Shown here: positions 1 through 32,957 of the stretch, one piece after another
Layout of the letters: the number at the start of each line of letters is the position of its first letter
Numbering within the stretch: position 1 is the stretch's first letter
NCBI GenBank assembly: GCA_024763475.1
Contig: JANTFM010000003.1
Coordinates: forward strand, 1-41,593
DNA length: 41,593 nt
Direction: 5' to 3'
Origin: Acidobacteriota bacterium
GTDB taxonomy: Bacteria > Acidobacteriota > Polarisedimenticolia > J045
Program-made: the position numbers and the translations under genes
The notes under the pieces: model-generated
Databases searched by the model: none
Told to the model about the DNA's origin: nothing
What the model saw: the letters and a program-made list of their open reading frames with translations, nothing else

Positions 1-2722
1 CATGGCTGATCCCCTGCTCAGCTCCACCCCTCCCAGGTTGATTTGACCCTCTCCCCGGCCCTCTCCCAGGTTGATGAGACTCTCTCCCAGGTTGATGAGC
101 TTCCCCTGCAAGAGGCACCGCCTGCGGAGCGTCTTTCGGGTCGGCAGACGAGAGGGGAGGAGGCGCCAGGCTGGCGGCCCGGATCACATGGGGGGGCTCC
201 GGATCCTCCCAGCCCACAACATCTTCCTCCCAGCTGCGCCAGCAGGCGGACTGGCGAAGAATGGAGAGCAGGCTTCCCGCGGCCCGCTTCCCGGAAGCCG
301 GGAAAGGGAGGATCAGGCGCTCCGCCGCGCGGGTCAGCGCGACGTAGAGCAGCCGCGCCTTCTCCGCCTGCTCCAGTTCCTTCTCGCGCGCAAGCAGCGT
401 TTCGTAACCCGGGCTCTCCAGGAAGCGAGCGAAGCGAATCTCCAGCTGCTCGCTCTCGCGATCGTGGAGGGTCACGCTGTGCCGGGAGCGGGGCTGGTGA
501 TTCACGTCAAAGAGCCCCACAATTCTCCATTCAAGGCCCTTGGCAGCGTGGATCGTCAGGAGCGTCACCCGCTCCTCGTCTTCGGCTTCGGGGCTCTCGG
601 CCTCCCGTGACAGCTCGCGCTCGGTCTTGTCCCTCAGCCAGCCGGCGAAGTCGGAGAGCCCGTAGCCGCCTCGCGCCCAGTGGTCCCGCGCCTGGTCAAG
701 CAGCTTGCGCACGTTCGCGCTCGCGCGATCCCCATGGGGCAAGCCCTCGAGGAGCAGCAGGAACTTCGTCTCATCGAGGATCTGCTCCACGAGCGCCGGC
801 GGGGCATCCTCGACCGAGCAGCGCTTCCATCGCGCGAGGGCCGTCAGCGCATCGCGCACGGCCCCTTCGCCGACATCGGGCGACGCGGACCCCAGATAGT
901 CCGCGACCAGGAAGGACCCGCCCGTCGCGCGATGCCGGGCGAGGATCTGGTCTGATATCGCGAAGAGGCGGGTCCGCAAGGCGGCGACCGCGAGCCGCTC
1001 ATCCCAGGGATCCGCCGTCGCGGCGACGACCGCTGCAATCTCACTGATCTCGGTCCGCCGGAAGAAGCGCTGGGATTTCTCTTGCCGGAAGGGGATCTTC
1101 TCCTCGTCAAAGGCCTCCTCGACAAAGTGGGCACGACTCGCCACCGCGAAGAGCACCGCGATCTCCGACCATCGAACACCTTCCAGATCGTGAGCCGCAC
1201 GAATCTCCAACGCGAGGACCCGCGCCTCCTGCCTGGCGGCGGCCTCCGCGCGAAGGTTCTCCTCGCCACCAATCGGCGCCAGGATCAGCGAGGGACCGCC
1301 ACTCTCGGCCTTGCCTGGCGCGGCCAGCAGGGTCTGCCATGCAGCCTGCCCCGCAGGATAGAGGGCCGGATCGAAGATCTCGGCAAAGAGCCTGTCGATA
1401 AGCCCCAGCATTCGGGGCGTGGAGCGGAAATTGACCGAGATGCGCTCAAGACATCCCTCCGCGTCGAGCGTTCCCACGTCTTCCTGGTAGGTCTGCACAT
1501 CGGCGTGGCGAAAGCGGTAGATCGATTGCTTGGGGTCACCTACGAGGAAGATCAGCGGACCTTCCTCTTCCGCGCGCAGCAGGCGCACGATTCGCGCCTG
1601 GATCGGGTCCGTGTCCTGGTACTCGTCGACCAGTAAGACCTTGAAGCGGCGACAAAGCGCGCGGCGCACCTCCCCCTTCGTCCGCAGGAGGCGCTCCGCG
1701 AGATAGAGCAGATCGCTCTGGGAGATCAAACTCCGCTCGAGACGCTGCTCGAGCGCCCAGGTCCGGAATCGGGCCATCGCGGCCAGCACCCTCCGGACCC
1801 GTGCCGCGAAGTGCTCCCGAATTCGGGCCGAGATCTCCTCGTCCCGGAAGACACGCAAGTCCTCACGGATCGCGGCGAGCGCTCCGCTTGCGTAGTTGCC
1901 CTTCTGCCCTTGTCTGAGTGTGATGTGAGGCAGGGAGAGAGTCTTCCCGCGGTGGAGATCGAGGAGCCAGCGCAGGCGGGCCTCGGGCGAAAGCGTCTCG
2001 AGGCGGACCAGTTCGTCTCGCAGGAGGATGAAGCTTTCCTCTAGCCGGTCTGACCCCTCGCCGACCCGGGACCCTTCGATGCGAGCAACAAGCGCCTGCA
2101 CTCCGTCGAAGAGATAGCGCCAGACGGCTTCGGCGCCCGGAGCCTCCGGAGCTTGGGCGGGCAGCCGGAGCGTCATCAGCTCCTGAACCTTCCGCGCAAG
2201 ATCCTCTAGACTCCCGAGCGCCGCGCCCCAGCCGAGCACATCGACAAACGGGGCCGCCAGGGCATCATCCTCCAACTGCACCGCGAACCACTCGGCGAAG
2301 AGCGCCACCGCCAGCTCGCGCCCTTCGGCATCTTCCGCCACGCGATAACCCGGTGCGAGACCCGCCAGAAGCGGGTACTCCGAGAGAATCGAGCCGCAGA
2401 ATGAGTGAATCGTCGAGATCTGGGCGAGTGGCAGGAGGCGCCGGGCCTCGGCCATACGTTCTGCTTCCTCGCCCTCGAGCCGGCCGATACGTTCCGAGAG
2501 CCCCCGCCGAATTCGCGCCCGAAGCTCGGCGGCCGCCTTTCGCGTGAAGGTGATCGCCGCCACCTCGCTCATGGAGTAGACACCCTGCTCGAGGCCGACA
2601 AGGATGCGCTCGACGAGCAGGGTGGTCTTGCCGGTCCCTGCACCCGCCTCGACCGCCAGGGAGAGTCCCTGTTCCTCCGCCGCACGGTCCCGCGCCGGCT
2701 GATCCTGGGGGAGGCTGCTCAA
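1..2722 (-). CDS. addA: ATP-dependent helicase/nuclease subunit A (AddA, UvrD-like), 3' end outside window
   Basis: Hand-translated from TTG at 2722 (TTGA overlap with the addB stop). Motifs: AVEAGAGTGKTT (Walker A), AITFTRKAAAEL, ISTIHSFC, LLVDEYQDTDPIQ, VGDPKQSIYRFRHAD, NFRS, LTIHAAKGLEW, RLLYVALTRA. Frame stays open to position 2, which explains its absence from the ORF track. Confidence 0.93.
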   Translation of the reverse strand, partial: MSSLPQDQPARDRAAEEQGLSLAVEAGAGTGKTTLLVERILVGLEQGVYSMSEVAAITFTRKAAAELRARIRRGLSERIGRLEGEEAERMAEARRLLPLAQISTIHSFCGSILSEYPLLAGLAPGYRVAEDAEGRELAVALFAEWFAVQLEDDALAAPFVDVLGWGAALGSLEDLARKVQELMTLRLPAQAPEAPGAEAVWRYLFDGVQALVARIEGSRVGEGSDRLEESFILLRDELVRLETLSPEARLRWLLDLHRGKTLSLPHITLRQGQKGNYASGALAAIREDLRVFRDEEISARIREHFAARVRRVLAAMARFRTWALEQRLERSLISQSDLLYLAERLLRTKGEVRRALCRRFKVLLVDEYQDTDPIQARIVRLLRAEEEGPLIFLVGDPKQSIYRFRHADVQTYQEDVGTLDAEGCLERISVNFRSTPRMLGLIDRLFAEIFDPALYPAGQAAWQTLLAAPGKAESGGPSLILAPIGGEENLRAEAAARQEARVLALEIRAAHDLEGVRWSEIAVLFAVASRAHFVEEAFDEEKIPFRQEKSQRFFRRTEISEIAAVVAATADPWDERLAVAALRTRLFAISDQILARHRATGGSFLVADYLGSASPDVGEGAVRDALTALARWKRCSVEDAPPALVEQILDETKFLLLLEGLPHGDRASANVRKLLDQARDHWARGGYGLSDFAGWLRDKTERELSREAESPEAEDEERVTLLTIHAAKGLEWRIVGLFDVNHQPRSRHSVTLHDRESEQLEIRFARFLESPGYETLLAREKELEQAEKARLLYVALTRAAERLILPFPASGKRAAGSLLSILRQSACWRSWEEDVVGWEDPEPPHVIRAASLAPPPLSSADPKDAPQAVPLAGEAHQPGRESHQPGRGPGRGSNQPGRGGAEQGISH
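32..96. repeat. Three copies of CCCAGGTTGAT inside addA, encoding (H/N)QPGR repeats
   Basis: Exact 11-mer at 32-42, 65-75 and 86-96. In the addA frame this reads EAHQPGRESHQPGRGPGRGSNQPGRGG. Confidence 0.85.
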
Positions 2723-31262: not shown

Positions 31263-31299
31263 ACCCCACGATGCCCCCCCGCTCCCACCGCGCCCTCTC

Positions 31300-31504
31300 T
31301 CAGCTGACCCTGGTTGTTGGCGAGCAGCTCCGCCCTCAACTCACCCAGGTTGATTGCGGGCTCTCAACCCACCCAGGTTGATTTCGAACAGCCTGATGGC
31401 GAGCACCTAGTCTGATTGTGCATGCCTCTCAAGTCACAAGATTTGTTAGTTATTAGCTATTGACTTTCAACTCACCCAGGTTGATTGCAAATGCCCCGGG
31501 TCGA
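31300..31504. repeat. Cluster of TCAAC-N8-GTTGA (CCCAGGTTGAT) repeats around an AT-rich island
   Basis: TCAACTCACCCAGGTTGA at 31336-53 and 31467-84, TCAACCCACCCAGGTTGA at 31364-81, and degenerate copies near 31300 and 31487. AT-rich stretch at 31431-31466. Confidence 0.8.
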
Positions 31505-31563
31505 TGAAGGCCAGTTACCGGAAAGACGATTCAGGTCAGCCATTTAGCACCACGGCCAGCCGT

Positions 31564-32100
31564 TCAGTCGGGATCGTCTTCCACGCCCAGAGCGTCGGCC
31601 ACGCGGTTGATGTAGTTGAAGTAGGCCGCAACTTGGACGGCAGCGTGAATCTCCACATCTGAGGCACCGGCTGCCTTGAGAACCTCGACATCTGCCTTGC
31701 AGCACGCGGCGGGCGAGAGCGTCATTTTCCTGGCGTAGGCGAGCAAGGCGCGCTGGGTGGGGTCCAGGGCAGGGGCCGGGTCAGCGGAAACGAGCGTCTC
31801 GGTCTTGTGGGGGGGAGCCTCGGCACGGAGGTCCACGAGATGGGCCTCGAGTCAGTAGTAACACTCGTTAAGGCGCGAGACCGTGACCCCGATCAACTCG
31901 CGGAACCAGCGCGGCAGGGGTGAGGACGGATGCATCACCGACGCCTGGTAGAGACCCAGGGAAGCGTAGAGGACATGCGGCTCGGCGGACTGAGCCCGCA
32001 CGATCTCGAAGACCCGTCCACTACGGCGGATGGCCTCGTCGTAGAGTTTGCGAAGCCGCCCCTTGGCCTCGGGGGGGGAGATCGTGTGAATCCAAGTCAT
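31564..32100 (-). CDS. AhpD/carboxymuconolactone decarboxylase-like peroxidase, probable selenoprotein (CxxU)
   Basis: The two ORF-track pieces share one frame, separated only by TGA at 31854-31852: VSRLNECYY-U-LEAH...YFNYINRVADALG. This matches the N-x-C-x-Y-C-x3-H motif. ATG at 32100. Confidence 0.87.
31814..31834 (-). promoter_or_regulatory. Candidate SECIS element of the AhpD-like gene
   Basis: Minus strand GGA-CCTC-[CGTGCC]-GAGG-c-TCC. The loop starts 24 nt after the TGA, with GT at loop positions 2-3. Confidence 0.6.
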
Positions 32101-32332
32101 CGCTCGTCCTTCTCGCTCCCGGGAAGCAGTCACTTACCAAACGGGCTACAATGGTAATACAGCGATCGCGGACACCGCAAAGAGGCCAACAGCGCCAAGC
32201 CGCGTACGCTGGGGATCTAGAAGAGGTCCCGGTGTGTCGGAGGAAGGACTCCTGAGAGTTTCCGGCCGACGGTTGTGTGAGCAGTTCTCGCGCGCCTGAC
32301 CTGCGAGCGCGAGGCCCCTGGGAGATGGGAAC

Positions 32333-32896
32333 ATGCGCGGATGGAATCAATGGCTCTGGACAGTAGCGTTGGTGTTTGTGCTCGCGGGAGTCTCCGCCAC
32401 CCTGGCGGCAGAGGGCCGCACGAAGAAAGCGAAGGTTGGCATGAAAGCTCCAGACTTCACCTTGGTAGGGAGTGATGGGAAGACCTACCAACTCTCGGAC
32501 TACCTCGGCAAGCAGGCCGTGGTCATCGCCTGGTTCCCACGGGCGTTCACTGGCGGCTGAACAGCCCAGTGCAAGGCGCTCCGTGAGAGCGGCGAAGCGA
32601 TCCAGGAATTCAATGTGGCGCTGTTCGCAGCCAGCATCGATGCTCCAGAAACCAACCGGAAATTCGCAGAATCCCTGGGCTTGGGTTATCCGATCCTCAG
32701 CGACCCCGACAAGAAGACTGCCAAGGCCTACGGCGTGCTCAAGACCCTAGGCCTCTACGCAGCGCGCCACACCGTGTACATCAGCGCCACAGGCGAGATC
32801 CTGCTGATCGACAAGAATGTCAAGCCGACCACCGCCGGGGCGGACATGATCCGGCAGCTGGAGAAACTCAAGATTCCCCGCAAGACCGAGAAATGA
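32333..32896 (+). CDS. BCP/PrxQ-type peroxiredoxin with signal peptide, probable selenoprotein
   Basis: KVGMKAPDFTL...AWFPRAFTGG-U-TAQCK...YPILSD...ARHTVYI. TGA at 32558-32560 occupies the peroxidatic PxxxTxxC position, and the downstream ORF is in frame. Confidence 0.9.
32577..32591 (+). promoter_or_regulatory. Candidate SECIS element of the peroxiredoxin
   Basis: CGCTC-[CGTGA]-GAGCG. The loop starts 21 nt after the TGA, with GT at loop positions 2-3. Confidence 0.62.
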
Positions 32897-32957
32897 TCCG
32901 GGCTGAATAGGACCGCCACTGCGCTCCCGCAGCTGAAGGGCTCGTGCCTATTCCGGT

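Follow-up and report, generated by a model that had tools for sequence, protein, structure and literature searches.

Introduction

AhpD-like proteins and peroxiredoxins (Prx) are two families already known to include selenoproteins. In the excerpted text of the survey of the Global Ocean Sampling (GOS) selenoproteome, AhpD-like 1 (COG2128, CxxU, 299 sequences), AhpD-like 2 (pfam02627, CxxU) and Prx (pfam00578, TxxU, 253 sequences) are listed, and neighboring Prx-like and AhpD-like genes are mentioned (PMC2398784). A 2026 review, also in excerpt, tabulates the AhpD-like protein under TIGR01926 (CxxU) and Prx under PF00578 (TxxU), together with DUF1573 (UGC), HdrA, Prx-like thiol:disulfide oxidoreductase and thioredoxin/TlpA-type (UxxC, UGC) selenoproteins (PMC13188914). 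The excerpted part of the BSepDB paper contains no passage on Acidobacteria or Prx. Here, we describe a divergent pair of genes, one AhpD-like and one coding for a Prx, located at positions 31564 to 32896 of a 41,593-nt stretch of DNA (the window) from contig JANTFM010000003.1 of an Acidobacteriota genome. Each gene contains one in-frame TGA, which very probably is a selenocysteine (Sec) codon in an otherwise intact selenoprotein gene. A preliminary description of the window had presented the pair as hidden selenoproteins; the novelty implied by this word does not hold, as the literature already covers both families and mentions that their genes are sometimes adjacent (PMC2398784, PMC13188914, both in excerpt).

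Two Genes Interrupted by a Single In-Frame UGA

The AhpD-like gene (peroxidase-related, CMD fold) occupies positions 31564 to 32100 of the minus strand and codes for 178 amino acids including Sec83. Its frame is unbroken from the ATG at 32100, which agrees with the M-x-W-I start of the orthologs, to position 31567, except for one TGA at 31852 to 31854, and is closed by a terminal TGA at 31564-31566. The residues around the internal TGA read SRLNECYY-U-LEAHLVDLRAEA (CYY-U-LEAH), which places the putative Sec at the second position of a C-Y-Y-U-x-x-x-H motif. The second gene, on the plus strand at positions 32333 to 32896, codes for a BCP/PrxQ-like Prx of 187 amino acids including Sec76. Its frame is likewise unbroken (32333-32893), except for one TGA at 32558 to 32560, before a terminal TGA at 32894-32896. 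Here, the surrounding residues are AWFPRAFTGG-U-TAQCKALRESG, where U takes the peroxidatic place in the P-x-x-x-T-x-x-U motif. Both genes are cut in two by a standard gene caller, which thus reports four open reading frame (ORF) fragments. Re-reading of the frames confirmed that each gene has a single in-frame TGA, at a redox-active Cys position, with intact coding sequence on both sides, as had been reported at first.

The preliminary description had also raised the possibility that sequencing reads carry TGC or TGT at these codons. In a separate assembly of run X1, one contig spans positions 31500-32942 and has both TGAs, and a low-depth contig from run X2, covering part of the stretch, has the TGA of the AhpD-like gene. 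Over 31500-32950, the X1 and X2 contigs differ from the window by a single synonymous change, A>G at 31861. This change converts TGT into TGC in the Cys of the AhpD-like CxxU motif and reflects either variation between strains or a difference in consensus.

Redox Centers of the Two Predicted Proteins

The AhpD-like product matches the Pfam CMD domain (1.6e-12, 47.7 bits, cut-off 23) and scores 105.6 bits against NCBIfam TIGR01926 'peroxidase-related enzyme' (cut-off 81.8), which makes it a member of this family. Its nearest solved relatives are the AhpD-type proteins 6k40, 3c1l, 2pfx and 2oyo, and in 6k40, 3c1l and 2pfx the column of Sec83 is occupied by the second Cys of the CxxC motif. In an alignment of 19 sequences, C80, position 83 and H87 of the C80-Y-Y-U83-L-E-A-H87 segment are invariant, giving a CxxU motif followed by a His at +4. 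In mycobacterial AhpD, roles are known for Cys130, Cys133 and His137. No signal-peptide-like N-terminus was recognized when the AhpD-like sequence was read by eye. The AhpD-like (TIGR01926) product is probably cytoplasmic, has its redox center at CxxU-x3-H and may act as a thiol/selenol oxidoreductase or as a hydroperoxidase.

The Prx product matches Pfam AhpC-TSA (PF00578) over residues 35-156, spanning the TGA (8.8e-31, 106.9 bits, cut-off 26). Its best solved relatives are the archaeal Bcp 3drn (8.7e-18) and then Mycobacterium tuberculosis AhpE, to whose peroxidatic Cys the TGA aligns. An alignment of 16 sequences shows no variation at P69, T73, position 76 or R145, the last of which is aligned with the Arg of 3drn; the protein thus has both the PxxxTxxU motif and the catalytic Arg. 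It scores below the equivalog cut-offs for Bcp (NF006960, 73.5 vs 140 bits) and PrxU (NF040737, 46.7 vs 270 bits) and is therefore a relative of these two equivalogs, not a member. Read by eye, its first ~26 residues (positions 32333 to 32410, plus strand) resemble a cleavable signal peptide, with MRGWNQ followed by the hydrophobic segment WLWTVALVFVLAGV and by SATLA-AE. A comparable hydrophobic N-terminal extension is found in every Prx ortholog, and the solved Prx chains align from residue 33 onward only. The Prx is thus probably exported. In this BCP/PrxQ-like protein, Sec76 would replace the peroxidatic Cys of the PxxxTxxU motif, be oxidized by peroxide and then be resolved by the invariant Cys80.

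Conservation of the In-Frame UGA Across Genomes

If the internal TGAs are functional codons, they should recur in homologs or be replaced by Cys, as the preliminary description had anticipated. Among the 60 nearest genomes, exactly one TGA was found in 22 of the 24 strong Prx matches (E<1e-45). The two exceptions are G030, without in-frame stop, and G049 (locus L039), which has a Cys at the Sec column and whose 'TAA' is its own stop codon. In the same genomes, 31 of the 38 AhpD-like matches contain one TGA and seven contain none. When 20 loci were aligned for each family, the TGA fell in the same column in 19, the remaining locus having a Cys (L039 for Prx, L058 for the AhpD-like protein). The aligned Prx loci include L038 (genome G034), on which nothing rests. 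Sequence conservation continues downstream of the TGA in both families.

This pattern extends well beyond close relatives. When 401 genomes were drawn evenly from the phylum, 43 had an AhpD-like match at E<=1e-30, the window among them, and one TGA was present in 41 of the 42 others. One TGA was also present in all 46 non-query matches among 60 relatives of a Planctomycetota genome (G429). Cys-containing AhpD-like homologs are L058 and G380. For Prx, a wide set was built with one genome per species, and the best 80 of at least 575 relatives were considered. Most of these come from Acidobacteriota (Polarisedimenticolaceae and Vicinamibacterales among them), Planctomycetota and Verrucomicrobiota, and a few are from Gammaproteobacteria. 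At the peroxidatic column, 49 of these best 80 loci have TGA and 31 have Cys (TGC or TGT). Since the TGA is conserved across genomes, two independent nonsense mutations, judged improbable from the outset, are excluded.

Hairpins Downstream of the UGA Codons

Both hairpins reported in the preliminary description, with a 5' stem ending in CTC and a loop starting with CGTG 24 and 21 nt after the TGA, are present. That of the AhpD-like gene (positions 31814 to 31834, minus strand), GGACCUC [CGUGCC] GAGG(C)UCC, has a loop of 6 nt (CGUGCC) which begins 24 nt past the UGA, a stem of 4+3 bp and an energy of -7.6 kcal/mol; it is contained in the minimum free energy (MFE) fold. That of the Prx gene (32575 to 32593, plus strand), G(G)CGCUC [CGUGA] GAGCG(G)C, has a loop of 5 nt (CGUGA) which begins 21 nt past the UGA, a stem of 5+1 bp and an energy of -7.9 kcal/mol; it is absent from the MFE fold of a 65-nt piece. 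For bacterial selenocysteine insertion sequences (bSECIS), the excerpted review gives a loop of 3-9 nt, an upper stem of 4-16 bp, a spacing of 16-37 nt, an energy <= -7.5 kcal/mol and, within the loop, a G within the opening two positions followed by G or U (PMC13188914). Both hairpins fall within these limits as quoted there.

In the 49 TGA forms of the Prx among the best 80 loci, all seven pairs are present in 43 sequences and six of the seven in the other six, and the loop is invariably CG[U/G]G[A/C]. In the same columns of the 31 Cys forms, the mean is 4.06 pairs, a single sequence reaches seven, and the Arg codon is often CGC. These 49 and 31 forms of one orthologous Prx provide a clean natural illustration of a hairpin kept only alongside UGA, with the Arg codon of the loop held at CGU or CGG. 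In an alignment of 50 sequences (46 distinct rows), 97.8% of the cells are paired, and four of the seven pairs have changed on both sides (CG/GC, CG/UA, GC/AU, GC/CG), in 14 cells. None of 500 shuffles reached the cell count or the covariation score and five reached the pair count, while slid controls had 29-67% of cells paired; a smaller set of 19 relatives gave the same picture. Codon usage is also constrained, with a mean top-codon frequency of 0.87 over nine columns within the 12 codons after the UGA, vs 0.69 over 74 columns elsewhere, and with the Arg near the UGA coded by CGT in 95% of sequences.

One public Acidobacteriota locus, L133, codes for a Cys-containing (TGC) Prx with the full seven-pair hairpin and the CGUGA loop still in place, as if Sec had recently been replaced by Cys.

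Among 43 TGA-bearing AhpD-like loci, the hairpin found in the window (type A) occurs in 24, over the D-L-R-A-E codons and with the pattern xGAYCUC[CGKGNN]GAGRUYx. In the other 19, another hairpin, ACGGGGAG-GNN-CUCCGU, lies upstream by a few bases. In 19 unbulged type-A relatives, a set without the window and its four nearest relatives, whose hairpins have a bulge of one base, pairing is complete (133 of 133 cells), two pairs show covariation (CG/GC, four times; CG/UA, four times), and none of 500 shuffles reached the cell count or the score. Across the nine closest AhpD sequences, the inner four pairs form in 100% of cases, and one of them covaries. The occurrence of two hairpins within one orthologous AhpD-like family looks like turnover of the putative SECIS by register shift.

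The two AhpD-like hairpins use the same codons differently. In type A, the 5' arm ends with the Leu codon CUC and the loop starts at CGU; the alternative hairpin has this CUCCGU as its 3' arm, paired with the upstream ACGGGGAG. In the latter, a double change from CAC/CGU to CAU/CAU turns the Arg into a His. Loci L048, L049 and L163 could form either hairpin. Non-type-A loci are L048-L059, L163, L168, L170 and L174-L182, and type-A loci are L040-L047, L050 and L160-L183.

Selenocysteine Machinery and Weight of the Evidence

The window's genome, an assembly of 484 contigs estimated to be 85% complete, was searched for the Sec-decoding genes, as had been proposed. All four were found above their cut-offs: selA (532.8 bits), selB (310 bits), selD (361.7 bits) and selC, the latter as a tRNA-Sec of 67.7 bits with anticodon TCA (UCA). 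The Sec-decoding trait is thus present.

Several points weigh against Sec recoding or soften its support. Folded as single sequences, the 65-nt pieces downstream of the two UGAs are no better than shuffles (z of +0.8 and +1.4), and it is therefore only through their relatives that the hairpins stand out from chance. Both hairpins barely clear the -7.5 kcal/mol line, and both are weaker variants of their kind, that of the Prx having a G-G mismatch at the sixth pair and that of the AhpD-like gene a bulged C. For the latter, the number of covarying pairs in the 19 relatives does not exceed that of shuffles (241 of 500 reach it), and the four-pair count on the nine closest orthologs is not significant either (43 of 500). 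The Mann-Whitney P value for the TGA and Cys hairpins of the Prx overstates the case, the related genomes not being independent. Run X1 may be the source sample of the window, so that its assembly is only partly independent. Lastly, we infer Sec insertion itself from sequence comparison.

Collectively, the gene structures, the family assignments, the conserved TGA column, the Sec machinery, and hairpins which are conserved, covary and behave as SECIS elements make it very probable that both TGAs are Sec codons, as the preliminary description had proposed. The hairpin structure appears to be under selection and tied to the UGA, with weaker evidence for the bulged AhpD variant of the window. A short hairpin within each coding sequence, with a loop starting C-G-U-G 21 or 24 nt after the UGA, would act as a bacterial SECIS. 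SelB with Sec-tRNA(Sec) would bind this hairpin and the ribosome would read that single UGA as Sec, while the terminal UGA of each gene, which has no such hairpin, would lead to termination by release factor 2 (RF2).

Arrangement of the Pair

It had also been proposed that the two genes form one co-regulated peroxide-detoxifying module, as do AhpC and AhpD in mycobacteria. This is unlikely. In its favor, the genes are divergent across a shared intergenic region of 232 nt (32101 to 32332), and the same divergent layout, with the Sec-AhpD-like and Sec-Prx genes ~120 nt apart and both with TGA, is found in a Planctomycetota metagenome-assembled genome (locus L083, genome G429). Against it, adjacency is not conserved. 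L083 is the only one of the best 80 Prx loci with an AhpD-like gene within 3 kb. Conversely, a Prx gene was found within ~1.5 kb in none of 43 other AhpD-like loci, and relatives of G429 have no Prx gene close to any of their 29 AhpD-like loci. Where both orthologs occur among the 60 nearest genomes, they are on different contigs; in the same genus, genome G001 contains a match to the AhpD-like gene but none to the Prx. The proteins themselves also argue against a module: the Prx is BCP-like, not AhpC-like, and has a signal-peptide-like N-terminus which is absent from the AhpD-like protein. The two proteins are thus probably in different compartments, and a direct AhpD-Prx redox couple is therefore unlikely. 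Any partnership between them is putative. A simple scan of the 232-nt intergenic region found no sigma-70-like site, and the flanking genes, coding for a DUF5916 protein and for a 543-aa protein without assignment, showed no functional link to the pair.

A more ambitious reading can be formulated from the few known occurrences of the layout, namely this Acidobacteriota-like genome, one Planctomycetota genome and one marine read in the literature. The divergent pair might be a small selenium-dependent peroxide-defense cassette, assembled or transferred more than once and expressed from one bidirectional stress-responsive promoter. As part of the same reading, the CUC-CGKG-GAG top of the hairpins might reflect a SelB preference common to these phyla, beyond the shared Leu-Arg codons. 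We regard this reading as improbable and offer it as a speculation.

Other Uses of UGA in the Genome

Read-through of UGA by near-cognate tRNAs is known in principle, and the two internal codons could be translated without Sec if UGA were generally reassigned or leaky, for instance to Trp or Gly. The genome argues strongly against this. It contains prfB, coding for RF2, at 473.4 bits (cut-off 370), and both genes end in TGA; UGA is therefore still a stop codon here. Homologs replace the internal TGA by Cys, not by Trp or Gly. In addition, few TGAs have coding signal on both sides. While a plain codon-bias screen proved too noisy, with 921 candidates at the threshold which keeps both known genes, a refined version, in which the frame must beat the other five frames on both sides of the TGA, retained only 68 TGAs genome-wide. 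In most cases, a start codon comes directly after the TGA. Apart from the two genes of the window, 20 of the other 66 were picked by eye for a Pfam check, the 46 excluded having a start codon soon after the TGA or no hint of a redox site, and five of the 20 have a domain across the TGA. Together with the AhpD-like and Prx genes, this makes at least seven genes with a Pfam domain across the TGA, all belonging to redox families; seven is a minimum because only part of the 68 went to Pfam. General reassignment or leakiness of UGA, as an explanation for the two genes, is thus highly improbable.

The five additional genes are probable selenoprotein genes of the same genome (G000). They code for an AhpC-type Prx (FTFV-U; contig C115, TGA at 2117-2119, plus strand; loop GGUC), a thioredoxin-like/TPR protein (WTTG-U-SAC; C162, 3919-3921, minus; loop CGUGA), an HdrA-like protein (CST-U-ILAP; C49, 10312-10314, plus; loop AGUU), a DUF1573 protein (PG-U-GC; C104, 2083-2085, plus; loop UCG) and a Prx-like protein (FG-U-GGC; C70, 12427-12429, minus; loop AGUUG). 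The loops of their best hairpins start 17-22 nt after the UGA.

These genes bear on the lineage SECIS consensus, CTC-CGTG-N1-2-GAG, which had been proposed from the pair in the window. This consensus does not extend to the lineage, as the CUC...GAG top pairs occur in only these two of the seven genes. Both of them encode Leu-Arg (CUC CGU) at this place, which accounts for the shared motif. Among the best-hairpin loops of the seven genes, CGUG occurs in three, and G-U at loop positions 2-3 occurs in six; the latter is the generic bacterial pattern. In the Escherichia coli SECIS, a role is known for G23 and U24. The genome scan suggested in the preliminary description, TGA-N15-24-CTCCGTG, was not selective, with 92 matches for TGA, 169 for TGC and 118 for TGG. 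A stricter filter for hairpins with a CG[TG]G loop recovered, among plausible candidates, only the Prx gene and the gene on C162, and missed the bulged AhpD hairpin.

Two kinds of candidates were rejected. On contig C195, the Glyoxalase domain stops before the TGA, which is an ordinary stop. The ECGU/ECCU candidates at ~32.8-33.1 kb of contig C1, without any Pfam match, turned out to be dispersed repeat copies and do not code for selenoproteins. This repeat (~20-27 nt, core TCAACTCACCCAGGTTGATT), whose copies at ~32.77-33.06 kb on C1 mimic TGA-containing ORFs, is present in four copies just downstream of the AhpD-like gene (window positions 31296-31489) and in 34 copies (<=3 mismatches) on 21 contigs genome-wide, with the intergenic look of repetitive extragenic palindromic (REP) elements.

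That both genes are pseudogenes, each hit by a nonsense mutation, would fit their splitting into two ORFs by the gene caller and is otherwise untenable, given a TGA column shared between families of one class and between phyla, protein sequence conserved on either side of it and, for the Prx, a hairpin conserved in the TGA forms only.

Comparison With Known Systems

For the two genes as Sec-encoding genes, the outcome is mainly a correction of annotation, four ORF fragments becoming two selenoprotein genes, and the genome should be annotated as one that uses Sec, in at least seven selenoprotein genes. What is known of Sec decoding and of these enzyme families is left unchanged.

With respect to the bSECISearch model, as excerpted in the review, both hairpins lie within the expected loop size, stem length, spacing and energy and have G-U at loop positions 2-3 (PMC13188914); they additionally share CUC...GAG as top three pairs, a feature which is not general in the genome. 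Compared with the AhpD-like selenoprotein family (TIGR01926/COG2128), the AhpD-like gene belongs to the same hidden Markov model family, carries CxxU, in which Sec stands in for the second Cys, and has Cys homologs. There is no difference of substance, the copy in the window being a bulged type-A variant. The Prx shares with the Sec-Prx family (PF00578, TxxU) the AhpC-TSA domain, the PxxxTxxU motif with a peroxidatic Sec and the Arg145, and is nearest to the BCP/PrxQ subfamily. It differs in being below the Bcp and PrxU equivalog cut-offs and in having an N-terminal signal-peptide-like extension. Its invariant second Cys lies four residues after the Sec (U-x3-C). E. coli Bcp has C-x4-C.

The pair differs from mycobacterial AhpC/AhpD in its BCP-like, probably exported Prx, in genes which are divergent instead of co-oriented and in an adjacency which is not conserved; the likeness lies in a peroxiredoxin and a CMD-fold CxxC protein which are encoded side by side.

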